From: Bacillales bacterium UBA3946
GTDB taxonomy: Bacteria > Bacillota_I > Bacilli_A > ML615J-28 > CAG-698
Length of the DNA stretch: 64,000 nucleotides
Direction of reading: 5' to 3'
Assembly: GCA_002385575.1 (NCBI GenBank)
Contig: DGDS01000002.1
Location: 29,371-93,370 of the forward strand
In this document: piece after piece, positions 28,001 through 62,678 of the stretch
Numbering within the stretch: the first letter of the stretch is position 1
How the letters are laid out: every line of letters starts with the position of its first letter
Notes under the pieces: generated by a model
Database searches by the model: none
Told to the model about the DNA's origin: nothing
Seen by the model: only the letters and a program-made list of their open reading frames with translations
Translations under genes and position numbers: made by a program

Positions 28001-28065
28001 ATTCGGCTTGCGCCGGATCGGTCTTCGTCAAGATGGGCGTCGAAGCTGAAGAACCCAAAGCTTAG
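25021..28065 (+). CDS. Giant lipoprotein: N-terminal Ig-like (Big_2-type) domains fused to an Opp/Dpp-family (cluster C, SBP_bac_5) solute-binding domain
   Basis: Lipobox LYAC|D. Three segments of about 90 aa with Big_2-like signatures (KLGKAKLTVTV, GEVTVTAYAAG, KIGKAVITASA), followed by a roughly 680-aa SBP_bac_5-like domain. First gene of the ABC operon, with a TTGACA-16-TATAAT promoter at about 24943-24970. Confidence 0.7.
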   Translation: MKKLFGVFMLLVAAFALYACDDKAGDDEFSGVLIEGRSHFLLTDEGVELEAKLIGSDENVEFTWKSSDTSVLEVAPKEDGDNTDTSIGVVKPKKLGKAKLTVTVKGKKNLQGFLNVEVKEELVKPEKVVLYYLGGYEAFLDSEVPFAAKVYPEGADPQIYWETSDEVSAPIQAQGLSVLSSFMLDNSINWSFAKITGKITGEVTVTAYAAGAEVFPDPEDAEKPLVVEASVDVNILSHIDVEGDSEIKVGGTAQLSATVNNTIEYKNEITWSSSDATVASVDANGLVTAKKIGKAVITASAPARFGSGTKSVLYPIEVLTEYDADELAGGAEGIRVSFKYASAEVKAKILAALERHLINRGASIPVINNSGVVVYSERVTLPTEKYVPLMGFGALYGELADNDVEHPYRTYTTADPKTFNHLMYKDSIESDMLSLIELSLFSFEFVDSDDNGLYDSYALLPSAAAKFAEPVEFNEETGEWEVIEDFDYDNDAAEAWKITLRDNLFWVDNNGHQQGQITAEDFVYTYQMALDPVQQNSRANYFYSAAGLPIKNAEAYYKQWDDKKTPHAPAKGLADGNYEYVKWSEVGVHKVDDLAFVLELSQAYQQWDIHYNTSGFLFSPVYKPLFEAGFGNDPNRKSTNYGSALDKFMSSGPYYLSYRETEKEYRFTKNQHYTYNEGCPEMTPAAIKYTIVKDANAAIELFEKDQLDSVSIPATHYDQYKNHAGLKKAPGATSFRFTVNRMTQAESDLLFGIGAWKVKPILQEDDFMWALYFAMDRNEIENISKTYTPEQFYFTQAYVVDPKAGEAYRDTDAGKQVGVGIFKDDVNLSTETLGVNKELATSYYVKALDSMIAKGVITEGTASKKTVIEVEIAAFDSVTWTNIIEYLAEDMAATFNAQTKYPNIEIKFIPSPQPGMNVYYEKQMKGRFDLALAGISGGLLDPIGFMECFCDDNRSGLMLSWGFNSHIPAILIDLDLDGDGKNDGPKYWSFDALYSACAGSVFVKMGVEAEEPKA

Positions 28066-28157: not shown

Positions 28158-29102
28158 ATGATCAATTATATTCTTAAAAGGCTTGTCCTGGTCTTCATTA
28201 CCCTATTCATCATTTTGACGTTGTCCTTCTTCCTCATAAAATTATTACCGGACAATACCGAGATGAGTTATTTAATGCAGGAGATGACGCCCGATGACTA
28301 TCGGTTGATGAGACAAAGGTGGGGCTATGACCAACCGTTGTTTGTCCAGTATTTTTATTGGTTGAAAAACATCATTCTGCATTGGGACTGGGGCGTTTCA
28401 ACGCATAAGAGAATAGGAGTTAATACTTTTACCATATTAACGGAAAAATTACCGATTACGATAAGATTGAATCTGATATCGCTTGTTTTTTCAATTCCGT
28501 TGGGGCTGTTGTTCGGAATCGTGGCCGCCTTAAGAAAAAACAAGCCGATCGATTATATAATCTCCGTTTTCGTAATCTTGTTCATATCCATACCTTCATT
28601 CGTTATCGTAACGGTGCTGATGCTGAATGCCGCGGATATGGGACTGCCGATCCAGTATCGACCTAGCGACCAGGTCACGATGAAGGATATGGTAATACCG
28701 GTGCTTTCGTTATCATTCGGCCCGATTGCCACGTTGACGCGTTACACGCGGGCTGAGTTAACGGAAGTGCTGACATCTGACTTTATCCTGCTGGCTCGGA
28801 CAAAAGGCCTTAACCGTTTCCACTCGACGGTAAGACACGCGTTGCGTAACTCGATGGTTCCCCTGGTACCGATCATCATCGGGAACTTTATCGGCATTTT
28901 GTTCGGGTCGCTGGTCATCGAACGCGTTTACGGCGTTCCCGGGGTTGCCGGCATATTGATTGAAGCAATCGACATCAAGGACTATAACCTGACGATGACG
29001 GCCCTGGCTTTCTACACGATAATCGGGTTGATCGCGACTTTGATCGTCGACATGACTTACGGCATCGTCGATCCGCGAATCAGAATGGGGAGTAGAAAAT
29101 GA
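28158..29102 (+). CDS. Oligopeptide ABC transporter permease (OppB/DppB-like)
   Basis: 6-TM BPD_transp_1 fold, 314 aa. Confidence 0.8.
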   Translation: MINYILKRLVLVFITLFIILTLSFFLIKLLPDNTEMSYLMQEMTPDDYRLMRQRWGYDQPLFVQYFYWLKNIILHWDWGVSTHKRIGVNTFTILTEKLPITIRLNLISLVFSIPLGLLFGIVAALRKNKPIDYIISVFVILFISIPSFVIVTVLMLNAADMGLPIQYRPSDQVTMKDMVIPVLSLSFGPIATLTRYTRAELTEVLTSDFILLARTKGLNRFHSTVRHALRNSMVPLVPIIIGNFIGILFGSLVIERVYGVPGVAGILIEAIDIKDYNLTMTALAFYTIIGLIATLIVDMTYGIVDPRIRMGSRK

Positions 29103-30433
29103 TGAACGAATACAAACACATCGACGCCAGCAAATTTGAATTCGTCCAAATGGACGTCAAGATTTTCGATAAGAAATTCGAGACTAAAGCCATTGGGTAT
29201 TTTGGTGACGCCGTTCGCCGGTTTGTCCGTAACAAATCGAGCGTGATGGGGTTCGTCATTCTCGTGCTGATCATTATCATGTCGATTATCGGTCCGTACA
29301 TCGGCGGTCACGGCGTTCATAAGCAGCACATGCATTATGACCAATTGCCAGCAAAGATTCCCCTGTTGGAGAAGATCGGCGTTACGAACGGGACACGTAA
29401 ATATGAAAACCAGAACGTCCAGTACATCAAGAGTTTCTACGAAGTCGATCCCGCTGACCCGGATTTCAAAAATTACTTTTTCAAGGAATGCATCACTTGG
29501 CAGTCCGGAAAACGCCGGGTCCGGCAAGGTAACGTAGAAGTTGATGTTGTCGATTTTACCTATGATGTATATAAACATAAATCCCTTCCCTATATCAGCG
29601 GTTGGATAGGCAAAACCAAATACGATGAGTTGACGGCGAAGGGAGCGATAATCGGCGATCCCATCAAAGTCAACTTGTCCCATCCCGAGTTTCCCCAATA
29701 TGTCGTGCAAATAGATCCGCTTAAGGAATACGGGTTCAAAAGCTCGGAAAGCATATACTTCCTTTTTGGAACCGACCAATTGGGCCGTGATATGTGGTCC
29801 AGGGTTTGGAGTGGTACCAGGGTTTCGCTTTTGATCGGATTGTTCGTTGCCCTGGTCACGATCACGGTCGGGGTAATTTACGGTTCGATCTCCGGATATT
29901 ACGGCGGAACGATTGATCTGGTAATGCAAAGGTTCGCCGAAATCCTTAGCGGAATTCCATGGATCGCGATCATGACGCTGGTCGTGCTGTACCTGGGAGC
30001 GAACCTGTTCTCTATCGCCCTGGCATTGGTTTTGACCAGCTGGATAGGAACATCCAACATGGTGCGATCGCAATTTTATCGATATAAAGGACGGGAATAC
30101 GTCCTGGCGGCGCGGACGCTGGGCGCCAAGGACCGCCGGCTGATCTTCAAACACATCCTTCCCAACGCCCTGGGACCGATCGTTACCTCCTCGGTGCTGA
30201 TCATCCCCAGCGCGATTTTCTCGGAATCGATGATCTCCTACCTGGGTTTGGGTATCAGTAAAGGTGTTTCCATTGGTAAACTCCTTGCTGACGGTCAGGC
30301 GGTAGGTATAACGACATATCCCTACCTGACGATCTTCCCCGCGATCATTATCTCCCTGCTGATGATATCCTTCAACTTATTCGGAAACGGGTTGCGCGAC
30401 GCGCTCAATCCTTCCCTGAGAGGAGTTGAATAA
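29099..30433 (+). CDS. Oligopeptide ABC transporter permease (OppC/DppC-like) with a long extracytoplasmic N-terminal loop
   Basis: 444 aa. A single N-terminal TM is followed by a roughly 180-aa loop and then an OppC-type permease core. Confidence 0.8.
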   Translation: MMNEYKHIDASKFEFVQMDVKIFDKKFETKAIGYFGDAVRRFVRNKSSVMGFVILVLIIIMSIIGPYIGGHGVHKQHMHYDQLPAKIPLLEKIGVTNGTRKYENQNVQYIKSFYEVDPADPDFKNYFFKECITWQSGKRRVRQGNVEVDVVDFTYDVYKHKSLPYISGWIGKTKYDELTAKGAIIGDPIKVNLSHPEFPQYVVQIDPLKEYGFKSSESIYFLFGTDQLGRDMWSRVWSGTRVSLLIGLFVALVTITVGVIYGSISGYYGGTIDLVMQRFAEILSGIPWIAIMTLVVLYLGANLFSIALALVLTSWIGTSNMVRSQFYRYKGREYVLAARTLGAKDRRLIFKHILPNALGPIVTSSVLIIPSAIFSESMISYLGLGISKGVSIGKLLADGQAVGITTYPYLTIFPAIIISLLMISFNLFGNGLRDALNPSLRGVE

Positions 30434-31481
30434 GATGCAACTGCCAGAAGATGTGATCCTTCGCGTTGAAGATTTGACGGTATCCTTCCGCACTCCCGAC
30501 GGCCTCGTGCGCGCGGTCCGCGGTGTAAACTTCGACCTCAAGCGCGGCGAGACTCTCTGCATCGTCGGCGAATCAGGAAGCGGTAAATCGGTCACGAGCC
30601 GGGCGATCATGGGCATCCTCGCCGGAAACGCCATTATCGAAGGCGGACATATTTATTATCGCGATTACGACCTGGTCCAGGTCAAGGAAAAAGACTTTCA
30701 TAAACTGCGGGGATCGATGATCGGGATGATCTTCCAGGACCCGCTGTCCAGCTTGAACCCGATCATGAAGATCGGCAAGCAAATCACCGAAGCGCTGATT
30801 CTTAAGAACAAGATGACGAGGGCGGAAGCGAAAGCCCGCGCCCTCGAACTGATGCGCGAGGTCGGCATTCCCGAACCGGAAAAAAGGTTCCATCAGTATC
30901 CGTTTCATTTTTCCGGCGGAATGCGTCAGCGCATCGTCATCGCCATCGCTTTGGCCATGAATCCGGAGATTCTGATTTGCGACGAGCCGACGACCGCGCT
31001 GGACGTCACGATCCAGGCGCAGATCCTCGACCTGATCAACGAACTCAAGCACAACCGCGGCTTGTCGATCATCTTCATCACCCATGACCTGGGTGTCGTC
31101 GCCAACATGGCGGACCGGATCGCCGTTATGTATGCCGGAAAAATCGTCGAATACGGGAAGTCGGAAGAAGTGTTCTATGACTGCCGGCATCCGTACACAT
31201 GGGCGCTTTTGGAGAGCATGCCGGCTTTGGAGAAAACCAAGGGCCAGCTTAATGCCATTCCCGGAACGCCGCCCAACATGCTCTTCCCGCCGAAAGGCGA
31301 CGCGTTCGCGCCTCGGAACCGTTACGCAATGAAGATCGATTTCGAGGAGGAACCGCCGTTTTTCAAGGTTTCCGACACGCATTACGCGGCCACGTGGCTT
31401 TTGCATCCCGACGCGCCAAAAGTCGAATCACCGATTAAGGGCCGTTATTTCATAAGCAAGGGGGCGAAATCCAATGACTGA
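30426..31481 (+). CDS. Oligopeptide ABC transporter ATP-binding protein (OppD-like)
   Basis: Walker A GESGSGKS, LSGGMRQR signature, Walker B ILICDEPTTALD, and an oligopeptide-type C-terminal domain. Confidence 0.9.
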   Translation: MNKMQLPEDVILRVEDLTVSFRTPDGLVRAVRGVNFDLKRGETLCIVGESGSGKSVTSRAIMGILAGNAIIEGGHIYYRDYDLVQVKEKDFHKLRGSMIGMIFQDPLSSLNPIMKIGKQITEALILKNKMTRAEAKARALELMREVGIPEPEKRFHQYPFHFSGGMRQRIVIAIALAMNPEILICDEPTTALDVTIQAQILDLINELKHNRGLSIIFITHDLGVVANMADRIAVMYAGKIVEYGKSEEVFYDCRHPYTWALLESMPALEKTKGQLNAIPGTPPNMLFPPKGDAFAPRNRYAMKIDFEEEPPFFKVSDTHYAATWLLHPDAPKVESPIKGRYFISKGAKSND

Positions 31482-32646
31482 GCCGAGAGAAAAGATCCTT
31501 GAACTGAAAAACGTCCGCCTGTATTTTTCGAGCGGTTTCGGGAAAAGAAAAGTCGTCGTCAAAGCGGTGCACAACATCAGCTTCGACGTATACAAGGGCG
31601 AGGTTTTCGGACTCGTGGGCGAGTCGGGGTGCGGTAAAACCACCACCGGCCGCGCGATAATCAAACTGTACAATTTGACCGATGGTCAGATATATTTTAA
31701 AAGCCGTCTCATCAGCGAAGGCAACCGCGGTAAGAATCTTGAAATCAAACGACTGAGAAAAGAAATCAGGGATAAAAAGAAAGAAACCGCCAATGTGATT
31801 GCCGAGTTGAAGGGCGAAGGAGAAATGGCCAACGTTGAGAAAATCAATACGGAAATCAACGAGGCAAAAGCGGAACTGAACAGGTTTATTGCCGAACAGA
31901 AGCAAAAGATTGCCCATCTGCGTCGGCTTAAAGCCGCGACCAGACGCGCAAACGTCCGCGATTCGAAGTTGATGTCGAAAATGCAGATGATTTTCCAGGA
32001 TCCGATCGATTCCCTCAACCCTCGTATGACGGTTAAGGAAATCATATCCGAAGGTTTGATTATCAACGGTATTAAGGATAAGGAGTTCATTGAACAGGAA
32101 GTCAACCGAGTTTTGGAATTGGTCGGACTGCTTCCCGATCATGCGAACCGTTATCCGCACGAATTCAGCGGCGGCCAGCGGCAGCGCATCGGGATCGCCC
32201 GCGCCCTGGTCGTCAATCCGGAAATGATCATCGCCGATGAACCGATCAGCGCCCTCGACGTTTCCATTCAGGCGCAGATCATCAACCTGCTGAATGAATT
32301 ACGGAAAAAATTCGGCTTGACGATCTTGTTCATCGCCCATAACCTGTCGGTGGTCAAATTCTTCTGCGACCGGATCGCCGTCATGTATTATGGGCGCGTC
32401 GTGGAAATCGCCGATTCCGAGGAGTTGTTTAAACATCCCCTGCATCCTTATACCAAGGCGCTTTTATCGGCGGTGCCGCTGCCCGATCCCGATTACGAAA
32501 AAACCCGGAAACGGATCGCTTATAATCCCTCGCTCCGCAAATTCACCGTCGATAAACCGAAAATGGTTGAGATTTATCCCGGACATTTCGTATATGCAAG
32601 CGAGGAAGAGGTTAAGGCTTATCGCAAAGAATTGAAACTAGAGTAA
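31474..32646 (+). CDS. Oligopeptide ABC transporter ATP-binding protein (OppF-like) with a ~95-aa charged coiled-coil insertion between Walker A and the Q-loop
   Basis: Walker A GESGCGKTT, FSGGQRQR, and Walker B IIADEPISALD. The K/E-rich insertion lies at about nt 31690-31970. Confidence 0.85.
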   Translation: MTEPREKILELKNVRLYFSSGFGKRKVVVKAVHNISFDVYKGEVFGLVGESGCGKTTTGRAIIKLYNLTDGQIYFKSRLISEGNRGKNLEIKRLRKEIRDKKKETANVIAELKGEGEMANVEKINTEINEAKAELNRFIAEQKQKIAHLRRLKAATRRANVRDSKLMSKMQMIFQDPIDSLNPRMTVKEIISEGLIINGIKDKEFIEQEVNRVLELVGLLPDHANRYPHEFSGGQRQRIGIARALVVNPEMIIADEPISALDVSIQAQIINLLNELRKKFGLTILFIAHNLSVVKFFCDRIAVMYYGRVVEIADSEELFKHPLHPYTKALLSAVPLPDPDYEKTRKRIAYNPSLRKFTVDKPKMVEIYPGHFVYASEEEVKAYRKELKLE

Positions 32647-38261: not shown

Positions 38262-38500
38262 AATACCAAAGCGATGATGAAGAAGGGAGTAATGGCGCTC
38301 TTTTTGCTCCAGGGAATTGGGACCGCGACTGGAAGTCCCATGCAAAACTCGTCATGAAATTCGTCTTCGGAGCGGTTCTAGACAAACCCGCAGAAATGCG
38401 TTATCAAGATTGAGGGCAACATTTTTTTATGTTGAACTAAGGTGGTACCGCGGAGATTCCGTCCTTAACGTGAACGTTAAGGACTTTTTATTTTTCTAGG
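38262..38500 (+). promoter_or_regulatory. T-box riboswitch leader (Phe specifier UUC) regulating pheS-pheT
   Basis: Promoter TTGCGA-17-TATAAT at about 38226-38254. Stem I region with GAAATTCG (UUC codon). Conserved T-box sequence AACTAAGGTGGTACCGCGG at about 38437-38455. Terminator GTCCTTAACG-tgaa-CGTTAAGGAC followed by TTTTTATTTTT directly before the pheS RBS. Confidence 0.8.
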
Positions 38501-38508
38501 AGGTTGTT

Positions 38509-39531
38509 ATGGAAAAACAGTTGGACGCCTTAAAGGATGAATTAAGGCAAGCGCTGGCCGGCGTCGAAAACATGAACCAGTTGAACGAGACCAAGGCCAG
38601 GTATCTGGGGAAGAAAAGCCCGCTGCAGGATCTGATGAAACTGATGCCGGGACTGGATGTCGAGGAAAGAAAGAATCTCGGCCGACAGGTGAACGAGTTT
38701 AAAAACTACGCCGGGGAATTGATCGCGAAAAAGGCGCGGGAACTGCAGGAATTGAAAGTGCGAGAGCAGCTGGAAAAAGATGCGATCGACATTACCCTGC
38801 CCGGCAAGGCCTTTTCCATCGGCCGCCGGCACCTGCTTGACCAGACCTGGGAGGAACTCGAAGACATCTTTATCGGCCTGGGGTTCCAGATTGCCGAGGG
38901 TCCGGAAATCGAACTTGACTTGTATAACTTTGAAATGCTTAACACCCCCAAGGGACACCCGGCGCGGGACATGCAGGACTCGTTCTACATTGACGAGAAC
39001 AACCTGCTCAGGACCCAGACTTCCCCGGTGCAGATCAGGACGTTGATTGCGGCGAAGGGAGATCCGGTAAAGATCGTCTGTCCCGGCAAGGTCTACCGCC
39101 GCGACAACGACGATGCCACCCATTCGCACCAGTTCATGCAATTGGAGGGGCTCGTCGTGGATAAAAACATCACGATGGCCGATTTAAAGGGAACGCTGCG
39201 GCTTCTTATGCGGAAATTATTCGGCGACCGGTTGGAAATCCGGTTCCGTCCGTCGTTCTTCCCGTTCACCGAACCGAGCGTCGAAGTCGAGGTCACATGC
39301 TTCAAGTGCTATGGTAAAGGTTGTCCTTTGTGCAAGCACAGTGGCTGGATCGAATTGCTCGGAGCGGGCATGGTCCATCCCAACGTTTTAAGAGGGACCG
39401 GCTACGACCCGAAGATTTATCAGGGATTTGCTTTCGGCATGGGCATCGAACGCGTCGTGATGTTCCGCCACGGCATTGACGATATCAGGCTCCTGTACGG
39501 CAACGATCCGCGCTTCTTGGAGCAGTTTTAG
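38509..39531 (+). CDS. pheS: Phenylalanyl-tRNA synthetase alpha subunit
   Basis: Class II aaRS motifs (FRPSFFPFTEPS, GMGIERV). A zinc-ribbon-like CFKCYGKGCPLC insert is present. Confidence 0.95.
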   Translation: MEKQLDALKDELRQALAGVENMNQLNETKARYLGKKSPLQDLMKLMPGLDVEERKNLGRQVNEFKNYAGELIAKKARELQELKVREQLEKDAIDITLPGKAFSIGRRHLLDQTWEELEDIFIGLGFQIAEGPEIELDLYNFEMLNTPKGHPARDMQDSFYIDENNLLRTQTSPVQIRTLIAAKGDPVKIVCPGKVYRRDNDDATHSHQFMQLEGLVVDKNITMADLKGTLRLLMRKLFGDRLEIRFRPSFFPFTEPSVEVEVTCFKCYGKGCPLCKHSGWIELLGAGMVHPNVLRGTGYDPKIYQGFAFGMGIERVVMFRHGIDDIRLLYGNDPRFLEQF

Positions 39532-39540
39532 GAGGATGCG

Positions 39541-41928
39541 ATGAAAGTAAAGTTAGAATGGCTTAACGAACTGGTCGACATATCCGATATCAATGAGGAA
39601 GACTTGATAAAGGCGTTATCGCTTTATTCCATCGAAGTGGAAGGAAACCATAAAGTGCTCTCCGGCACCAACCTAGTCGTCGGACATGTCCTTTCGGCGG
39701 AACGGATCAAGGATTCCGACCATCTGAGCGCCTGCCGCGTCGATGTCGGTAGCGAGGTTTTGCCGATCGTGTGCGGCGCGCCGAATGTCCGTGCGGGGCA
39801 GTATGTCATCGTCGCCAAGGAAGGCGCGGAACTGCCGGGCGAACTAAAAATCAAACGGGCGAAAATCCGGGGCGAAGAGTCCCAGGGAATGATCTGCTCG
39901 CTTGAGGAACTGGGACTGGAAAAGAAATACGTTCCCGAAGAATACCAGAACGGCATCTATTATTTCAAAGATGAAGTCGAAGTCGGCAGCGATCCCTTGA
40001 AGGCGTTGAACCTTGCTGACACCGTGATCGAACTCGGGGTCACGCCCAACCGCGGCGACCTGCTCAGCATGCTCGGCGTCGCGATCGAGATCAGCGCCGT
40101 CTATGACCGGCCGTTCCGGATGCCCGCTTATAACGTCAACTATATCAAAGAAGAATGCGCCGATTACGTAACGATCAAAAGCGAGACGCCCGGCTGCATC
40201 GGTTATTACGCGCAGGTCTTTAAAAACGTCGAGATCAAGCCGTCGCCATGGTGGCTGATCTCTCGGCTCATCGCTTTCGGGATCAGACCGATAAACAACG
40301 TCGTCGACATCACCAACTACATTCTCGCCTTGTTCGGTCAGCCCCTGCACGCCTTCGATTATGACAAACTTGGCAAGCAGATCACAGTCCGGAACGCCCT
40401 TCCCGGTGAGACGATCACCACGCTCGACGGGGAGGAACGTAAACTCGTTCCCGCCGACCTGCTCATAACCGACGGGAAACGGCCCGTCGCCCTGGCCGGG
40501 GTCATGGGCGGACTCGACACGGAGATCACGGCGGAAACGAAAAACATCGTCCTCGAGGCCGCGGTATTTGATCCGATGTCCGTAAGCAGGACGTCAAGGC
40601 GCCTCGGCCTGATCAGTGAGTCGTCGATGCGCTTTGAAAAAGGCGTCGACATAAACCGGACGAAAATCGCCGTCGATTACGCCGCCTACCTGTTCCAAAC
40701 CCTGGCGGGCGCGGAAGTATTGAAAAACCCGGTGTATGTGGGCGTGGACAAGCCGGAACCGGTCCGGATCGAGATTAACGCTGACGAAGTGAACAAACTG
40801 CTGGGCACGTCGATCACCGACGCCGAGATCAAGGATATCTGCCGGCGGTTGAAATTCTCCGTCAACGGCAGTTCCATCGGGATTCCCAGCCGCCGTCCCG
40901 ACATCAGGATCAAAGAGGACCTGATCGAGGAAATCGGCCGGCTTCACGGTTATGACAAGATGCCATCGACGATCCCGGTCCTTCCCTCCATCGGTTATCT
41001 CACCGATAAGCAAAAAGCGCGCCGGGAAATCAAGAACATCCTGACCGGGCTCGGCTTTAACCAGCTGATAACTTATACCCTCGGCGGCGAGGAAAACGTC
41101 GGAATGTTTGCGAAACTCGTTCCCGACCAAAGGAAAACGGTCGAATTGATCAACCCGATCACTTCCGCCCGTAAGTTTCTACGCACTTCGCTTTTACCGG
41201 GACTGATTGAAAACGCCCGTTATTGCGCCGCGCACAAGATCAAGGATCTGGCCATTTTCGAACTCGGAAAAATCTTTTACAAAACCGATAAGTATTACGA
41301 GCCGGAACACCTGGCGCTCTTGATGACCGGGAAGTATGCGGGGACGCTTTGGCAGAAGAAAGAGGAAAAAGCCAACTTCTATCTGCTCAAAGGCATCTGC
41401 GAGTTGTTGTTCACAAAACTCAGGATGAACGTCGAATTCAAGCCGGTGGACAACGAAAACAATGAATTGCATCCGTGCCGGAGCGCCTACCTTTATAATG
41501 GGGACGAAATCATCGGCTTTATCGGCGCCCTGCACCCGCAATTCGCCGCCGCCTGCGATCTTGAGGACGTGTATGTTTGCGAGCTTGACGTGAGCGCCGC
41601 GCTCGAACGCAAAAAAACGGCGGTCACATACAAACCGTTCCACCGTTATCCCGCAGTCGAACGCGATATCGCAGTCATCGTTTCCCGCGGGGTTTCTGCT
41701 GGGGCGTTGGTGGCGACCGTTAAACAAAGCGCAAACAAGTACCTTCGCAAGGTCGATATCTTCGACGTTTACGCCGGGGAAAACCTCGGCGCGAACGCGA
41801 AATCGGTGGGAATAAAAATGGTGTTTTCCGCCGATTACGTCTTGACTGACGCGGAAATCAACCGTATGGTCGAAAAGATCGTAAAAAGCCTGGAAACCAA
41901 TCATCAGGCGAAATTAAGAGTCGAATAA
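39541..41928 (+). CDS. pheT: Phenylalanyl-tRNA synthetase beta subunit
   Basis: 795 aa with tRNA-binding, B3/4, B5 and FDX-ACB domains. Confidence 0.95.
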   Translation: MKVKLEWLNELVDISDINEEDLIKALSLYSIEVEGNHKVLSGTNLVVGHVLSAERIKDSDHLSACRVDVGSEVLPIVCGAPNVRAGQYVIVAKEGAELPGELKIKRAKIRGEESQGMICSLEELGLEKKYVPEEYQNGIYYFKDEVEVGSDPLKALNLADTVIELGVTPNRGDLLSMLGVAIEISAVYDRPFRMPAYNVNYIKEECADYVTIKSETPGCIGYYAQVFKNVEIKPSPWWLISRLIAFGIRPINNVVDITNYILALFGQPLHAFDYDKLGKQITVRNALPGETITTLDGEERKLVPADLLITDGKRPVALAGVMGGLDTEITAETKNIVLEAAVFDPMSVSRTSRRLGLISESSMRFEKGVDINRTKIAVDYAAYLFQTLAGAEVLKNPVYVGVDKPEPVRIEINADEVNKLLGTSITDAEIKDICRRLKFSVNGSSIGIPSRRPDIRIKEDLIEEIGRLHGYDKMPSTIPVLPSIGYLTDKQKARREIKNILTGLGFNQLITYTLGGEENVGMFAKLVPDQRKTVELINPITSARKFLRTSLLPGLIENARYCAAHKIKDLAIFELGKIFYKTDKYYEPEHLALLMTGKYAGTLWQKKEEKANFYLLKGICELLFTKLRMNVEFKPVDNENNELHPCRSAYLYNGDEIIGFIGALHPQFAAACDLEDVYVCELDVSAALERKKTAVTYKPFHRYPAVERDIAVIVSRGVSAGALVATVKQSANKYLRKVDIFDVYAGENLGANAKSVGIKMVFSADYVLTDAEINRMVEKIVKSLETNHQAKLRVE

Positions 41929-45172: not shown

Positions 45173-45529
45173 ATGATAAGGGTGATGTTTTTGCTTAAAG
45201 ATAATGGTCCGTTGATGTTTATTAACACGGTCAGCACTCAGGTAAACGAAGTCCCGCATCAAAAGATCTTCGACAGCCGGACACAGAAAGTGCGGAACAT
45301 CAAAACGAAGTCGAAGCTGGAATTCCTGGAGGATAGGAAACTGAATAATATCATCGAGATGTATCAGAAAAACCGGCCCGTTCTCTGCAATATCATATGT
45401 GAGGGAGAAGAGATCATCGGCATTCCCTTTAAAAAGACCGACCGCATACTTTATGTAAAAATCGATGAAGAAAGCGTCGAGAAAATATATCTACACAATA
45501 TCACCGATATTGTTATAATCAGGTTTTAA
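45173..45529 (+). CDS. Hypothetical small protein, possibly YolD-like. The start is uncertain because the first codons lie in a terminator stem.
   Basis: The C-terminal pattern ICEGEEIIGIPFKKTDRILYVKIDEESVEKIYLHNITDIVII resembles YolD-like proteins. The 11-bp stem AAACATCACCC/GGGTGATGTTT at 45158-45198 overlaps the annotated start. Confidence 0.25.
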   Translation: MIRVMFLLKDNGPLMFINTVSTQVNEVPHQKIFDSRTQKVRNIKTKSKLEFLEDRKLNNIIEMYQKNRPVLCNIICEGEEIIGIPFKKTDRILYVKIDEESVEKIYLHNITDIVIIRF

Positions 45530-45930
45530 TAGGGTTTACATCTTTTTTTACATTCTTCGCAGCAGATCGGCTCGAAGCACTGCAGCCCGCAGACGCAGCA
45601 AAGATTCAGAATCGCGGTATGATTCGTGCAGACTAATTTCGGCCCGCACTGCTTGAGAATCCTGAGCGTGACGCAGTCGCCCCTCAGTTCCTCAATCCGG
45701 AACACGTTCGAGGTTTCGGTCGTTTCCGGAATTTCCACCGTGAACGCCGTCCCGTTGCACAGATAGAAAGTAACGGGCCGCGTGTTGAACAGTTTCTTCG
45801 TTAGAGGGCTGTCGCAACCCTCGCATTCGTCTTCAAGGATTGCTTCCTTCTGCAGCTGGTCGATTTTCAGCACGATGTCATGGATGCAGTTTTTGCAGGT
45901 GGGGAAGGATGAACATTTTTCTCGAAGCAT
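45526..45930 (-). CDS. CotZ/CotY-family cysteine-rich spore coat (crust) protein
   Basis: Co-linear with B. subtilis CotZ: C..IVLKIDQLQKEAILEDECEGC, FRIEELRGDCVTLRIL, and a C-terminal Cys cluster. A sigma-K-type promoter lies upstream. Confidence 0.65.
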   Translation of the reverse strand: MLREKCSSFPTCKNCIHDIVLKIDQLQKEAILEDECEGCDSPLTKKLFNTRPVTFYLCNGTAFTVEIPETTETSNVFRIEELRGDCVTLRILKQCGPKLVCTNHTAILNLCCVCGLQCFEPICCEECKKRCKPY

Positions 45931-49384: not shown

Positions 49385-49591
49385 TCAACTGATGTTTGAA
49401 GTAATCGTCTGGACGATGTGGTTTCGTTCATCCTCGCCGACGCTGTTCCAATAGATCTCGAACAGCGCCCCCAGACCCGGGAGGACTTTTTCTTCCCTGA
49501 TGTTGATCGCGTCGACGATCGTGCTTTTGACGTCCTCGAACGAGGAATTGTTCAGATTGTTTTTCACTGCCTGTCTGATATCAATGTTCAT
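49385..49591 (-). CDS. sspI: Small acid-soluble spore protein I
   Basis: 68 aa, co-linear with B. subtilis SspI (IRQAVKNNL...EDVKSTIVDAI..REEKVLPGLGALFEIYW). Confidence 0.7.
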   Translation of the reverse strand: MNIDIRQAVKNNLNNSSFEDVKSTIVDAINIREEKVLPGLGALFEIYWNSVGEDERNHIVQTITSNIS

Positions 49592-54722: not shown

Positions 54723-54806
54723 ATCCTTGCAAAAATTGATAATTTTGTTATAATCATAGAAAAACCAAAAATTGACTTGTGGAGTTATGCCGCGGAAGGA
54801 GAAATA

Positions 54807-55835
54807 ATGAAGGAATTATATAATGCTTTATATGAAAGAATCAACGGTCTCGATTTTTCCCGCTTATGGCCTGGTTTCAAATCGTTCCGGTTCGCGCTTT
54901 ATGACGATGAAAAGGTATTGCTGGGCGAAGAGGTTTTTGCGAAAGACGAGCGTTTCATCGGCAATACCGCGATCATGTATGGCGATGAGTTTTTGGCGAT
55001 CTGGGACGTAAGTCTCAGCCCCGTTAGCGATCCGGACATCTTCGCCGTGAAGATCATCCACGAGATGTTCCACGCCTTTCAAAGGCAAAGCGGTGAAACG
55101 CGTTGGGCGAACGAACTTAGCGGCCTGAAATATGCTTACGCTTCCGACAACCTTACCATTAAGCATCGGGAGAACATACTTCTACTGGCGGCTTACGATG
55201 GATTCGCGCCGGAAAAACTGGACGAGTTTTTCTCCTTGAGAAAGTTGAGACGGGAAAAGTATGCGTCTGAAGTCGAATATGAGACAAGAATTGAAACGAT
55301 CGAAGGTCTCGCCAATTATGTGGAACTGATGGCCCTGTGCCAATTAAGCCCCGATAAATATGAAAAGGCAGTCGCGGAAATTAAGGATGAAATCGGCAAG
55401 GTCTCCAACCTGATTCCGATAAGGAAGGTTTGTTATTACACCGGAGCCCTGCTTTTGATCATTTGCTCAGAAAACGGAATTCCATTTGCCCATAAGATCG
55501 GCGCCGAGGAAAAAACGTTTTACGAACTGGTTGCAAAAGACGTGGCGGCGGGCGGAATAAGCCTTGAGATGAATGCGGAAATCGAATCACTGATCAAAAA
55601 ATATCATGACGAAAACGAGAAATTGATTCACGATTTCATCGCTTCTCATCCCTGTCGTCTGGAAGGAAAATATCCGCTGCGCGGCCTTGACCCGATGAAT
55701 ACCATTAAGTTCGGGGAATACCTTTATTGCAAGCATTTTATCTCTTATTCCGATGCCGGCGCGCTGCAATTTGTTAAGCAACCGTGCGTGGTAAAAGTGG
55801 ATGAACAGTTCAACATCCTCGCTTTATATTGTTAG
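54807..55835 (+). CDS. Hypothetical protein with an HExxH...E zinc-metallopeptidase-like motif
   Basis: IHEMFHAF followed about 60 aa later by ETIEGLANYVE. No family is recognised. GGAAGGAG RBS, ATG at 54807. Its own promoter is TTGCAA-16-TGtTATAAT. Confidence 0.5.
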   Translation: MKELYNALYERINGLDFSRLWPGFKSFRFALYDDEKVLLGEEVFAKDERFIGNTAIMYGDEFLAIWDVSLSPVSDPDIFAVKIIHEMFHAFQRQSGETRWANELSGLKYAYASDNLTIKHRENILLLAAYDGFAPEKLDEFFSLRKLRREKYASEVEYETRIETIEGLANYVELMALCQLSPDKYEKAVAEIKDEIGKVSNLIPIRKVCYYTGALLLIICSENGIPFAHKIGAEEKTFYELVAKDVAAGGISLEMNAEIESLIKKYHDENEKLIHDFIASHPCRLEGKYPLRGLDPMNTIKFGEYLYCKHFISYSDAGALQFVKQPCVVKVDEQFNILALYC

Positions 55836-55991
55836 TACGAGCGACCCATAAAATAGGAAAACAGAACGAAATAGCGGGTTTTAATGGATAATATACTCAC
55901 AGAGACAATATCTAACGAAAAATGTAATTGTCCTTGAAGAAAACCCGCATTTATGTTAAAATAATTATGATAATAAAATCAGTGAAATGCG

Positions 55992-58900
55992 GTGAAAGAT
56001 ATGGATAACAAAACCGAAAAACAAGGTTCGGATTTGTTGGTTGAAAACGAGAAGAAAGAAAGCAGCAGCGTGAAAGCCGCCAAAACGGGAACCACGAAAA
56101 AATCCGGCACCACAGAGACTAAGCGGAAAAACGTCTCCGCGCTCGAGGTCTTGGCGAAAAAGGAGACCATTAAATTAACGGAAGATAAAAAATCCGAAAC
56201 CGCCGTTGAATCTGCCACTGATGCCCTGCCCGCTGATAAAGATACAAAGAAAATTACGAGATATTACGATACCCCGATCCTGCAAGGCCTGACTACGGAA
56301 CAGGTAGAGGAAAGGATCAGGGACAATCTTGTCAACCGCGTGACCGACCGGCAAGGCAAATCGATACTCAAGATCATCCTTACCAACACCTTCACCTTCT
56401 TCAACATGCTTTATCTTACAATCACGATTATCTTCGCAGTGTTGAAGAGTTACGAGAATCTGTTCTTTCTGGCCACCATCATCCCCAACTATTTGATCGG
56501 GTTGTTCCAGGAAATCAAGGCCAAGCTGCTTGTCGACAAATTATCGTTGATGTCGGCCCCGACGACGACCGTCATCCGCAACGGCGAGAAAGTCGAAATT
56601 CCAGTCAACGAGGTCGTCCTTGACGACATCGTGTTTTACACGCCGGGCAAGCAGATCTGCGCCGACAGCATCATCCTCGAGGGCACCGTCGAAGTCAACG
56701 AATCGCTTTTGACCGGCGAGTCCGACGCGATTGTGAAAAATCCCAGCAGCGAGTTGTTCTCCGGAAGCTTCATCATCAGCGGCGCCGCCGTGGCCCGGAT
56801 CGATAAAATCGGCAAGGACAATTACATCGAAAAATTGGCCAAGGACGCCCAGGTATATCAGAAGCCGAAATCGCAGTTGTTGCGGTCGCTTAATATTATC
56901 ATCAAATTCGTCTCCATCATCATCCTGCCGTTGGCCGTGTTGACATACATTACGACGACCAACGGGATGCCGAGGGACTTCCTCTCGGTCTTGAGCCGCG
57001 ACGGCCTGATCAGAGCCGGAAGTTCCGTACTCGCAATGATTCCGGCCGGATTGTTCCTGTTGACGAGCGTTTCGCTCTTCTACGGCGTCATCCGGCTCAG
57101 CAACCGCAAGACACTCGTTCAGGAATTGTACTGCATCGAGATGCTCGCGCGGGCCAACGTCCTATGTCTGGATAAGACCGGAACGATCACCGACGGCACG
57201 ATGCGGGTGTTCGATTGCATCGAACTTAAGAATTACACGGACTACACGATTCGCGAGATCATCGGCTCGATGATGAATGCCTTCCAAGAAACGAATCCGA
57301 CGTCGGAAGCGCTGATCCGCTTCTTCGACAAGAACAATGTTTTGGAACCGACGCGGGTGATTCCGTTCTCGTCCAAACGCAAATACAGCGCCGTCGTTTT
57401 CGGCGAGCAGGGCACGTTTTATCTCGGTGCGCCCGAGTTCGTACTGAGTCAGTATTATGAAACCGTCAAAGCGCGGGTCGAAAGATTCGCAAGCGAGGGC
57501 GGTCGCGTGCTTGTCCTCGGACATGTTCCCACCCAGGTCAAGAGTGAGGACATCCCCCGCAATGTCAAACCCCTGGCCCTGATCGTCCTTCATGACCATA
57601 TTCGCGAGGACGCGGCCGACACGATCGACTTCTTCAAACAAAACAGCGTCGACATCAAGATCATCTCCGGCGACAATCCCGTGACGGTATCGCAGATCGC
57701 TGCGCGCGTCGGCGTCGAGGGAGCGGAGCGCTATGTCAGCCTCGCCGGCAAAAGCGACGACGAGGTCCGCGAGATCGTGTTCGATTACACGGTCTTCGGC
57801 CGGGTCAGCCCCCAACAGAAAAGGATCATTGTGCAGGCACTTAAGGAACATGGAAAAACGGTGGCGATGACGGGAGACGGCGTGAACGACATCCTCGCTT
57901 TGAAAGAAGCCGATTGCAGCATCGCCATGGCTTCCGGTAGCGACGCTGTTCGATACGCTTCGCATCTTGTCCTTGTGAATTCTACTTTCGCGAGCATGCC
58001 CGAGGTCGTCATCGAAGGCCGGCGCGTCATCAACAATATCCAGAAAACCTCGACGCTCTTCCTCGTGAAGACGATGTTCGCGATCCTGCTCACGATCATG
58101 TATATCATCCTGGGAATGCAGAACGGACCGATCAGCATCACTTATCCGTTCACAGCAAAGCACTTGTACATGATCGAGTGGTTCGTGCTCGGATTCCCGT
58201 CGATCTACCTGGCGCTGCAGCGTAACCGTTCGATCGTCAAGGGCAAGTTCCTGTCGAACGTCATCAAATCGACGTTACCGGGGGCGCTCACGATCGTGAT
58301 ATTGCACTTGATCCTAAGCCTTTTGCGCATTACCCCGGGATTTGAGTCGCTCCAGCACAACAACGCCGTGTATACGACGATCGCGACGGTGGTGACGACG
58401 GCGGTCATGTTGTTCGTCCTCTTCCAGATGTCGCAGCCGTTTAACTGGGCAAGGAGGACTATCTTTACCGCGATGGTGCTCGGCTGCATCCTGATGGGAT
58501 TTAACTTACTGCCGATCAAGTTCGCAAAACTCGACCTGAGTTATTATCGAAACATCGACGAACTTTCCAAAGAAATAATCCTAGAGGTTAACAACTATAA
58601 CCACTGGTCCCTCAACGGGAAGGCGACGCCGGTGCGGGCGATAGCCAAACCGGAAGTTGTTAATCTACATAACGAGACTTATCTTACTCCCAACATAACG
58701 ATCAGCGGCGATTATCACTGGTGCCTTAACGGCGTGAAGACGTCGCTGAGCGCCTTCGAGGTCAACCGCCTCGAACTCGACGTTATCGAAAAGTACTGGT
58801 ACGTCAACGGGCAGAAGATGAGCGTCAAGGCGTTCCGGGTGCCTGGGATTACCTATACGACCGCGGCTGCGGGTTACCGCAGACCGGAAATCACGATCAT

Positions 58901-59426
58901 CGATAACCATTGGGTCATTGACGGGCATCCGACCAGCATCCACAGCAGCGTCGACGAATTGATCCTGACGGTCTCCGGCGGATTTTGGTGGCTGAACAGC
59001 CGCGAAACCACGGCAAAGGCTGAGAAACTGCCCCTTAACCCGGACGAATACGAGATTCCGATCGTGGTCATCAAGGACGGTTATTTTGTCATCAACGACG
59101 TCAAGACCGACATCCCGGCCGGCATTGGCGACCAGATCAACCTGGCGGTCGATGTGGACGGTTACTGGACGATCAACGGCGTGAAGACCGCCATCAAGGC
59201 ACGCAAGGTCACCGACGGTGACGGCGTTACCAATTATGTGGAACCGACCCTATCCATCAGCCGGGACGGCTACTGGCAGTTAAACAGCGTCAAGACCGGC
59301 GTCAAGGCCGAGGGTGCGTTGATGGTCAAGGAGATTCTCATCACCTTGCTCATGGTGCAATTGATACTTCCGCTGATGTATCTGCTTTCCAAGACCTTTA
59401 AAAAAATGAGTATCGCCCCAGAATAA
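55992..59426 (+). CDS. Cation-transporting P-type ATPase (P2-like core) with a K-rich disordered N-terminus and a C-terminal tandem-repeat domain plus an extra terminal TM helix
   Basis: DKTGTIT, SGDN and GDGVNDILALKEAD motifs. The TM4 motif reads IPAGL rather than PEGL. About 10 TM segments, then eight 27-38-aa repeats (58590-59330), then a final hydrophobic helix. Confidence 0.8.
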   Translation: MKDMDNKTEKQGSDLLVENEKKESSSVKAAKTGTTKKSGTTETKRKNVSALEVLAKKETIKLTEDKKSETAVESATDALPADKDTKKITRYYDTPILQGLTTEQVEERIRDNLVNRVTDRQGKSILKIILTNTFTFFNMLYLTITIIFAVLKSYENLFFLATIIPNYLIGLFQEIKAKLLVDKLSLMSAPTTTVIRNGEKVEIPVNEVVLDDIVFYTPGKQICADSIILEGTVEVNESLLTGESDAIVKNPSSELFSGSFIISGAAVARIDKIGKDNYIEKLAKDAQVYQKPKSQLLRSLNIIIKFVSIIILPLAVLTYITTTNGMPRDFLSVLSRDGLIRAGSSVLAMIPAGLFLLTSVSLFYGVIRLSNRKTLVQELYCIEMLARANVLCLDKTGTITDGTMRVFDCIELKNYTDYTIREIIGSMMNAFQETNPTSEALIRFFDKNNVLEPTRVIPFSSKRKYSAVVFGEQGTFYLGAPEFVLSQYYETVKARVERFASEGGRVLVLGHVPTQVKSEDIPRNVKPLALIVLHDHIREDAADTIDFFKQNSVDIKIISGDNPVTVSQIAARVGVEGAERYVSLAGKSDDEVREIVFDYTVFGRVSPQQKRIIVQALKEHGKTVAMTGDGVNDILALKEADCSIAMASGSDAVRYASHLVLVNSTFASMPEVVIEGRRVINNIQKTSTLFLVKTMFAILLTIMYIILGMQNGPISITYPFTAKHLYMIEWFVLGFPSIYLALQRNRSIVKGKFLSNVIKSTLPGALTIVILHLILSLLRITPGFESLQHNNAVYTTIATVVTTAVMLFVLFQMSQPFNWARRTIFTAMVLGCILMGFNLLPIKFAKLDLSYYRNIDELSKEIILEVNNYNHWSLNGKATPVRAIAKPEVVNLHNETYLTPNITISGDYHWCLNGVKTSLSAFEVNRLELDVIEKYWYVNGQKMSVKAFRVPGITYTTAAAGYRRPEITIIDNHWVIDGHPTSIHSSVDELILTVSGGFWWLNSRETTAKAEKLPLNPDEYEIPIVVIKDGYFVINDVKTDIPAGIGDQINLAVDVDGYWTINGVKTAIKARKVTDGDGVTNYVEPTLSISRDGYWQLNSVKTGVKAEGALMVKEILITLLMVQLILPLMYLLSKTFKKMSIAPE
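58590..59330 (+). repeat. Eight tandem, degenerate ~30-aa protein-coding repeats inside the ATPase gene. Consensus ..[TI][LI]x[IV]..DG[YFH]Wx[LIV][ND][GS]xKTx[ILV]KA
   Basis: HWSLNGKAT, HWCLNGVKTSLSA, YWYVNGQKMSVKA, HWVIDGHPTSIHS, FWWLNSRETTAKA, YFVINDVKTDIPA, YWTINGVKTAIKA, YWQLNSVKTGVKA. Confidence 0.7.
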
Positions 59427-62581: not shown

Positions 62582-62678
62582 TGATAAATATCGGTATCAT
62601 GTTTATTTTTACCCGGTAATTATTTTATTTTTTAATTTAATTGTGTTATAATAGTTATATGAATTTGCGGTGATTATC

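Follow-up and report, generated by a model that had tools for sequence, protein, structure and literature searches.

The window analyzed here, a 64,000-nucleotide (nt) stretch of DNA from Bacillales bacterium UBA3946 (GenBank assembly GCA_002385575.1, contig DGDS01000002.1, positions 29,371 to 93,370 of the forward strand), carries a gene for a P-type ATPase (55992-59426, + strand) whose product contains eight tandem repeats close to its C-terminus. Taken together, the observations are best explained by a CtpE-like pump with ten transmembrane helices (TM1 to TM10), in which a β-repeat domain lodged in the outward-facing loop between TM9 and TM10 would serve as a built-in accessory domain; as a whole, this reading appears to us slightly likelier to be right than wrong. 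To our knowledge, bacterial P-type pumps have been regarded as membrane machines with nothing attached, and the only outside domains known are those contributed by separate subunits in animal pumps. The earlier note on this DNA, made by a model from the sequence alone, had described the protein differently, as a pump fused to a C-terminal repeat domain and ending in an extra, eleventh membrane helix.

Location of the repeats in the TM9-TM10 loop

In the full-length AlphaFold model (predicted local distance difference test [pLDDT] score of 69.4), nine helices lie ahead of a β region (residues 861-1105) and a single helix (residues 1112-1138) follows it. The core helices of the model span residues 125-150, 154-187, 295-323, 336-371, 666-709, 722-742, 753-780, 791-813, and 819-836, and hydropathy likewise gives nine helices preceding the repeats. 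Homologs of 844-912 amino acids (aa) that lack the repeats, and whose cores are 56-63% identical to that of the query, end with TM9, a loop of 8-10 residues, a last helix, and a tail of the "KKLRI" type. The terminal helix of the query with its KK tail, ILITLLMVQLILPLMYLLSKTFKKMSIAPE, aligns residue for residue with this last helix, and in the same alignment the repeats lie wholly within the TM9-TM10 loop. The respective features are as follows:

58446-58517, + strand: TM9, about residues 819-842, after the Arg-rich cytoplasmic loop (hydropathy and model)
58530-59324, + strand: insertion of ~265 aa in the exoplasmic TM9-TM10 loop, residues 847-1111 (alignment with short orthologs and AlphaFold model)
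59325-59423, + strand: TM10, residues 1112-1138, with a short Lys-rich tail in the cytoplasm (homologous to the final helix of the short forms)

The flanking charges, in "NWARR" ahead of TM9 and in "SKTFKK" behind TM10, obey the positive-inside rule, so the loop with the repeats must face outward, as the TM9-TM10 loop does in all type II P-type pumps. Judging from the alignment and the model, the pump has ten helices, and the repeats are inserted into its exoplasmic TM9-TM10 loop. A C-terminal fusion followed by an eleventh helix is ruled out by the nine helices that precede the repeats and by the match of the last helix to TM10 of the short homologs. The earlier note had also asked on which side of the membrane the repeats are located; hydropathy, the AlphaFold model, and the charges all predict the outside.

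Anatomy and identity of the repeat domain

The insertion contains eight W-x-[LIV]-[ND]-[GS]-x-x-T cores, at residues 872, 910, 936, 974, 999, 1032, 1059, and 1095. An alignment of 24 nonredundant long homologs resolves them into four tandem modules of ~62 aa, each consisting of two units, with the consensus sequences "xLxLxV..GYWxINGxxTxxKA..P" (unit A) and "EYxxPxITI..GYWxLNGxxTxIxA" (unit B):

58572-58766, + strand: repeat module 1, residues 861-925, two hairpin units
58767-58958, + strand: repeat module 2, residues 926-989
58959-59135, + strand: repeat module 3, residues 990-1048
59136-59321, + strand: repeat module 4, residues 1049-1110

The eight repeats counted in the earlier note stand far above the shuffle scores in two tests with hidden Markov models (HMMs). 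A repeat HMM from which the query and its three closest relatives had been left out gave 234.5 bits on this region compared to no more than 13.1 bits for 1000 shuffles, and an HMM built solely from non-ATPase proteins recovered all eight units in their expected positions with 93.6 bits, shuffles reaching at most 9.0. When modeled alone (AF2), the insertion is predicted to be all-β, with three strands per unit and a mean pLDDT of 84.7. It is acidic, with a pI of 5.3 in the query and of 4.1-5.3 in 17 of 17 homologs. The residues conserved throughout the clade (Trp, Thr, Ala, Pro, Asn, and one Glu) look fold-determining rather than like a catalytic or metal-binding cluster.

When 1.84 billion representative proteins were searched with a profile of the pump modules, at least 873 of them matched with an E value of 1e-3 or lower, and 258 reached 1e-10 or lower. 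Among the best 149 matches, which were inspected, a handful were pumps or pump fragments; the other 144 proteins included 116 with a hydrophobic N-terminus, 61 with a lipobox-like motif, and 134 with Gly-X-Y runs. The canonical unit in the nonpump proteins reads "TPTIxISxDGYWxINGxKTxxKAxGxDG," and in secreted proteins and lipoproteins it usually alternates with collagen-like Gly-X-Y spacers. These proteins match the Pfam domain DUF4988 (PF16378, profile positions ~63-142) at up to 1e-29, the pump profile reaches DUF4988 proteins at up to 1e-75, and the same polypeptides carry LRR_5, Flg_new, GDPD, Trypsin_2, Collagen, and other extracytoplasmic domains. Because the nonpump matches mostly combine a hydrophobic N-terminus, Gly-X-Y runs, and extracytoplasmic domains, the repeat can be regarded, by these sequence features, as a widespread surface-protein module of the DUF4988 type, catalogued yet uncharacterized. 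The relationship between the pump repeats and the canonical ones is accepted because HMMs detect it in both directions. The pump copies would then represent a divergent subtype that lacks the collagen-like spacers and falls below the Pfam threshold: DUF4988 scores 15.9 bits on the insertion (residues 1049-1102, E = 0.011), the gathering threshold being 30.

Apart from this subthreshold hit, comparison of the insertion alone with Pfam and NCBIfam returned nothing, and no known wall-binding family was matched. Choline-binding and other known wall-binding repeats were ruled out by profile and structure searches of the insertion. Structure comparison found no solved structure resembling the insertion model. 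The unit profile gave a single marginal match among the PDB sequences (residues 211-233 of the phage 80α protein FibU, E = 0.11), where the motif directly follows a collagen-like stretch within a region without density; the matched segment belongs to the unmodeled part of that structure (PMC7048315). Literature searches on the repeat turned up only DUF4988 proteins as Bacteroides surface antigens, and no report of a pump with such a repeat domain or of DUF4988 on P-type ATPases. The earlier note did not recognize the repeat as any of several known types. The repeat type has in fact been catalogued, being partly covered by DUF4988; it remains, as the note took it to be, an unusual module for a pump, and DUF4988 itself is neither well described nor, in the literature searched, reported from P-type ATPases.

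Affiliation with the CtpE family and the ion-binding site

The remainder of the protein is a complete P-type pump core preceded by a Lys-rich tail. The features relevant to its classification are as follows:

55992-56276, + strand: Lys-rich N-terminal tail, residues 1-95, cytoplasmic, predicted to be disordered (low pLDDT)
56277-58529, + strand: pump core, residues 96-846, actuator, phosphorylation, and nucleotide-binding (A, P, and N) domains and TM1-TM9 (Pfam, NCBIfam, and Nocardia alignment)
57039-57053, + strand: TM4 motif I-P-A-G-L, residues 350-354, with Ala352 in place of the Glu of PEGL
57171-57185, + strand: DKTGT phosphorylation motif, residues 394-398 (motif scan)
58068-58070, + strand: Lys693 in TM5, invariant in 113 of the 113 family members sampled
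58176-58178, + strand: Glu729 in TM6, aligned to the first Asn of "FINLVND" in LMCA1

The core announced in the earlier note is confirmed by the positions of its motifs (TGES at residue 241, IPAGL at 350-354, DKTGT at 394, SGDN at 559, and GDGVND at 628; PEGL is absent), by Pfam matches to E1-E2_ATPase, Hydrolase, and Cation_ATPase_N, and by the generic P-type model TIGR01494, which scores 224.3 bits against a cut-off of 62.3 and is the sole NCBIfam model to pass its cut-off. The combination of DKTGT, TGES, and the GDGxND hinge is that of the P-type ATPase superfamily (HAD-IC), and the ten helices of the AlphaFold model, with TM4 broken at Pro351, conform to the type II topology, in agreement with hydropathy. 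The ~95-aa Lys-rich N-terminus, also described in that note, is present as well and is predicted to be disordered, with pLDDT values under 50 for residues 1-48 and 61-85 of the AlphaFold model; such a tail is found in the short homologs, too.

On the evidence of sequence comparison, the pump belongs to the CtpE ("P6," FUPA23) lineage. It shares 35% identity over 760 collinear residues (E = 2e-154) with a Nocardia "cation-transporting ATPase E," the name that JGI also gives to the homologs of the query; the similarity to this lineage is closer than to the P1-P5 groups, the protein compared being that of Nocardia and not the characterized mycobacterial CtpE. A search started from the Nocardia homolog yielded Nocardia proteins exclusively and bore out its name. 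Its best match among solved structures is the Listeria pump LMCA1 (PDB entries 6zhf and 9euq; E = 5e-52). Among the matches listed from the genome collection, relatives are 33-49% identical and span Clostridia, Bacilli, Coriobacteriia, Saccharibacteria, and many Actinomycetota, a range that agrees with the one published for CtpE/P6 (PMC5615198, PMC10654040). CtpE, known from M. smegmatis and M. tuberculosis, is a Ca2+ uptake pump and the proposed founding member of the P6 ATPases, with a (V/I)PEGL motif in TM4 (PMC5615198, PMC10654040). In P6 pumps, the newest and least understood P-type family, for which the mechanism of Ca2+ import is open, the TM6 Asp of the Ca2+ efflux pumps is replaced by a hydrophobic residue (PMC10654040). 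In the query, Leu733-Gly734 occupy the Asn-Asp positions of LMCA1, and Ile-Gly or Leu-Gly is found there in 104 of 113 family sequences. With Ala352 and this Leu-Gly pair at ligand positions, the protein does not qualify as a P2A pump, and every specific NCBIfam Ca2+ pump model falls far short of its cut-off (TIGR01116, 168 against a cut-off of 703; TIGR01522, 186 against 798).

Ala352 is conserved both in the long forms of the query clade and in the nearest short homologs. Across the 113 members, which are related sequences rather than phylogenetically independent samples, the TM4 residue co-varies with the TM6 residue at position 729: P-E-G comes with a nonacidic residue (S, G, T, A, or N) in 55 of 55 sequences, P-A-G with Glu in 41 of 41, and P-S-G with Glu or Asp in 5 of 7. 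The pairings of TM4 and TM6 residues are Glu with Ser/Gly, Ala with Glu, Ser with Glu/Asp, and Gln with Asn. Position 729 corresponds to what we take to be Asn796 of SERCA. Because of this co-variation and the location of Glu729, the carboxylate seems to have been relocated from TM4, where Ala352 replaces Glu, to TM6, leaving a site that is remodeled rather than emptied. The earlier note was correct that TM4 lacks the ion-coordinating Glu, and the comparison with LMCA1 that it proposed places Ala352, Leu-Gly, and Glu729 as described above; the noncanonical substrate deduced there does not follow, since the TM6 Glu compensates. The swap is unrelated to the insertion because it is common to short and long forms. 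The co-varying pair may mark the binding site of the whole P6 family; the exchange of Glu for Ala in TM4 along with that of Ser/Gly for Glu in TM6 would then indicate which residues form it.

A second P-type ATPase of 818 aa, with E1-E2_ATPase and Hydrolase domains, is encoded elsewhere in the window (14000-16456, + strand) and has no bearing on the repeat domain described here.

Origin of the insertion and genomic context

In a neighbor-joining tree of the cores only, all long forms (with insertions of 264-279 aa) form a single clade that has no member without the insertion, and the short forms fall outside. The four-module plan is retained down to ~35% identity of the insertion. The insertion is clearly under purifying selection: the ratios of nonsynonymous to synonymous substitution rates (dN/dS) calculated against the closest relative (P0002) are 0.025 for the core, 0.082 for the insertion, and 0.31 for the N-terminal tail, all of them approximate because synonymous sites are near saturation. 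Both long forms (the window and loci L081, L083, and L085) and short forms (L087 and L088) occupy the same site in the order DJ-1/PfpI, patatin, pump, rpsF, ssb, rpsR. Because of this shared site they can be treated as positional orthologs, and the insertion apparently arose once, in place, in a sublineage of uncultured Bacilli.

A different insertion of ~380 aa is found in the same loop (pump open reading frame [ORF] residues ~846-1235) of a 45% identical protein from an "uncultured Mollicutes bacterium" (Mollicutes UMGS268, locus L001). It contains degenerate copies of the motif (17.8 bits, E = 1.4e-7), and matching proteins of this type (P0390-P0401) come from metagenome-assembled genomes (MAGs) labeled Anaeroplasmataceae. 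This insertion may reflect a second colonization of the loop or an old insertion that was lost in the short forms.

Wall-related genes in the window code for a Mur ligase, BacA/UppP, and an NlpC/P60-SH3 hydrolase; the window also contains an SSPI-like ORF and a gene for a CotZ-like protein. Because of these wall genes and the SSPI- and CotZ-like ORFs, the host is suggested to be a walled, possibly endospore-forming member of the Bacilli, though some related MAGs are labeled Acholeplasmatales. The taxonomy of the long-form genomes is taken from submitters' labels, which read "Bacilli bacterium," "Acholeplasmatales," and "Acholeplasmataceae." The ORF for the SSPI-like small acid-soluble spore protein (49385-49591, - strand) has counterparts with the Pfam SSPI domain in syntenic relatives, and the resemblance of the ORF at 45526-45930 (- strand) to the spore coat protein CotZ is weak.

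Between the patatin and pump genes, the window has a 352-aa ORF (54777-55835, + strand) that contains the motif HEMFH (HExxH) and is matched by no Pfam family. It is absent from the syntenic loci L081, L085, L087, and L088 and has a G+C fraction of 0.44, compared to ~0.52 in the surrounding DNA. It looks like a lineage-specific inserted gene that possibly codes for a metallopeptidase.

Possible functions of the outer domain

In the favored reading, a CtpE-like pump with a built-in accessory domain, the repeats would lie at the outer membrane surface next to TM10, the spot at which animal pumps have the outside domains of their separate accessory subunits. By analogy with these subunits, the domain would probably stabilize the pump or position it in the envelope. 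Its strong acidity may also let it collect the divalent cation to be transported at the outer mouth; judging from mycobacterial CtpE, Ca2+ uptake would be the likeliest activity. A bolder version holds that this is the first P-type ATPase in which an in-chain outside accessory domain captures the cation or passes it on to an importer with a carboxylate shifted from TM4 to TM6; we consider it doubtful.

Several points weigh against the favored reading. The function of the outer domain is inferred, and its place beside TM10 derives from the alignment and the helices of the model rather than from contacts with the outer loops. Acidity is common in extracytoplasmic domains of Firmicutes, and TM9 and TM10 are peripheral in P-type pumps, away from the ion path, which makes a role at the mouth uncertain; no metal-binding cluster is seen among the conserved residues of the insertion, and those that are conserved look structural. 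In surface proteins, collagen-like, presumably trimeric segments flank the repeats; the pump has no such segments, and the behavior of the repeats there may not transfer. As for the pump itself, the orthology with CtpE comes from sequence similarity and database names, not from direct comparison with the characterized mycobacterial protein; the PEGL motif that defines CtpE is replaced by IPAGL; and the co-variation counts carry the phylogenetic dependence mentioned above.

With the repeats placed outside, envelope contact stays a possible role, and the domain could instead bind a cell wall, teichoic acid, or spore envelope polymer and thereby anchor the pump or give it a set location, such as the septum or forespore, with no part in transport. 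Repeats of this type are characteristic of proteins displayed at the surface and of adhesin-like proteins with LRR_5 and Flg_new domains, and the host genes for the Mur ligase, BacA, NlpC/P60-SH3, SSPI, and the CotZ-like protein would supply a wall and possibly a spore to bind. Loss of CtpE affects envelope integrity in Mycobacterium smegmatis, and ctpE interacts genetically with cozEa in Streptococcus pneumoniae (PMC5615198, PMC11371651). Pfam and NCBIfam searches, however, matched no known wall-binding family, and in surface proteins the repeat acts like a stalk between a lipid anchor and a functional domain rather than as a binding module. Furthermore, a related insertion occurs in MAGs of Anaeroplasmataceae, a family regarded as wall-less, and we rate such a tether as unlikely. 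Alternatively, a ligand or envelope signal perceived by the outer domain might be relayed via TM10 to switch the pump, similarly to the modulation of animal pumps by accessory subunits at TM10 (PMC6127144), and evolution is indeed quicker in the domain than in the core, a frequent trait of ligand-facing modules. This version has to contend with an insertion alignment in which no conserved pocket-like residues were found and with loci that, among those compared, show no conserved partner gene adjoining the pump. TM9 and TM10 are also the least mobile helices in the P-type cycle, as seen in the SERCA structures, and a regulatory gate of this kind seems distinctly improbable.

The domain could also be a passenger, a surface-protein repeat cassette tolerated in a permissive peripheral loop and contributing nothing to pump function. 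The TM9-TM10 loop is short, peripheral, and variable in P-type pumps, and the different degenerate insertion in the same loop of another lineage suggests that it tolerates insertions. Such indifference is at odds with the insertion dN/dS of about 0.08, with the constancy of the length (264-279 aa) and of the four-module plan at ~35% insertion identity, and with the fact that no clade member has lost the insertion, which together leave this possibility highly improbable. Finally, sequencing or assembly error might have wrongly joined a pump ORF to a separate ORF for a repeat protein, as the earlier note had considered. The gene is one intact ORF and, because ~85 database clusters (1122-1212 aa) from independent assemblies in NCBI, JGI, ENA, and Logan keep the same continuous architecture, it is not an assembly or frameshift artifact; moreover, the terminal helix is homologous to TM10, so splitting the ORF would leave a nine-helix pump. 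Nothing was found in favor of two ORFs, and the chance that they exist is practically nil.

If the bolder version, with an in-chain domain that captures the cation or passes it on, is correct, the protein would be a single-polypeptide bacterial counterpart of the β-subunit and neuroplastin arrangement, made from a surface-protein hairpin repeat with a fold not represented in the PDB, and the TM9-TM10 loop may have been colonized more than once, as in the Anaeroplasmataceae variant. No prior description was found of any P-type pump whose own chain includes an outside domain; the clade that carries it here is narrow. The positional orthologs with and without the 265-aa outer domain provide a clean system for probing its role. 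The analysis also offers the first anatomical description of the very common DUF4988-type surface repeat, along with a confident structure prediction.

Gene start and upstream region

The gene and its upstream signal were delineated as follows:

55992-59426, + strand: whole P-type ATPase gene, a single uninterrupted ORF of 1144 aa counted from GTG; the ATG at 56001 is the likelier start
55934-55962, + strand: promoter-like site about 30 nt before the start, TTGAAG-17-TAAAAT with TG (consensus scan)

The ATG at 56001, located 8 nt past GGTGA, is likely to be preferred over GTG and would give a product of 1141 aa, to which one database entry of the same length (P0001) is 100% identical. No riboswitch or other Rfam element was found in 55600-56100, so the upstream region provides no hint of the substrate.

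Other genes in the window

In three of the loci compared, the genes for GdpP, a c-di-AMP phosphodiesterase, and ribosomal protein L9 form one ORF of ~810 aa (positions 12699-15134 of L085, 16431-18860 of L083, and from 12658 in L087). Its domains are PAS_GdpP, GGDEF_GdpP, DHH, DHHA1, and Ribosomal_L9_N/C, an apparent fusion; the GdpP copy of the window starts at 62670 and extends past the window end. A T-box leader (Rfam RF00230, 105 bits; 38265-38469, + strand) immediately precedes a pair of ORFs (38509-39531 and 39541-41928) resembling pheS and pheT. The ORF at 25021-28065 (+ strand) encodes an unusually long (1014 aa) family 5 solute-binding lipoprotein with an inserted Big_2 domain. The run of ORFs that follows it (28158-32646) comprises candidate ABC transporter genes, judging by appearance.

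Comparison with known systems

The pump shares with the CtpE/P6 ATPases a ten-helix P2-like topology, the absence of the TM6 Asp, and the TM5 Lys that is invariant across the family sample. It differs from them in having IPAGL instead of VPEGL, a Glu in TM6, the 265-aa domain between TM9 and TM10, and the ~95-aa Lys-rich N-terminal tail. The P2A Ca2+-ATPases, such as SERCA and LMCA1, have the same set of A, P, and N domains and ten helices. Their site II ligands, presumably Glu309, Asp800, and Asn796 in SERCA numbering, correspond here to Ala, Gly, and Glu, respectively.

The DUF4988-type repeats of Bacteroidota and Firmicutes surface proteins share with the insertion the core [ITV]-x-[IV]-x(2,4)-G-[YF]-W-x-[IL]-[ND]-G-x-x-T-x-x-[KR]-A and an extracytoplasmic location. 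In contrast to those repeats, the pump insertion lacks collagen-like Gly-X-Y runs, is built of two alternating unit subtypes, and is held between two membrane helices instead of following a signal or lipoprotein peptide.

The accessory subunits of animal pumps (the β-subunits of Na,K- and H,K-ATPases, neuroplastin and basigin of PMCA, and CDC50 of P4 ATPases) likewise place a sizeable outside domain beside TM10 (and TM7) of the pump: in PMCA, neuroplastin touches TM10 as well as the TM8-9 linker, and the Na,K-ATPase β-subunit touches TM7 and TM10 (PMC6127144). Those subunits, however, are separate polypeptides with a membrane helix of their own and Ig-like or other folds, and they have no sequence or fold relationship to the repeat domain. 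Any functional equivalence is hypothetical and would be one of analogy; in the pump described here, the same arrangement would have been reached within a single chain.

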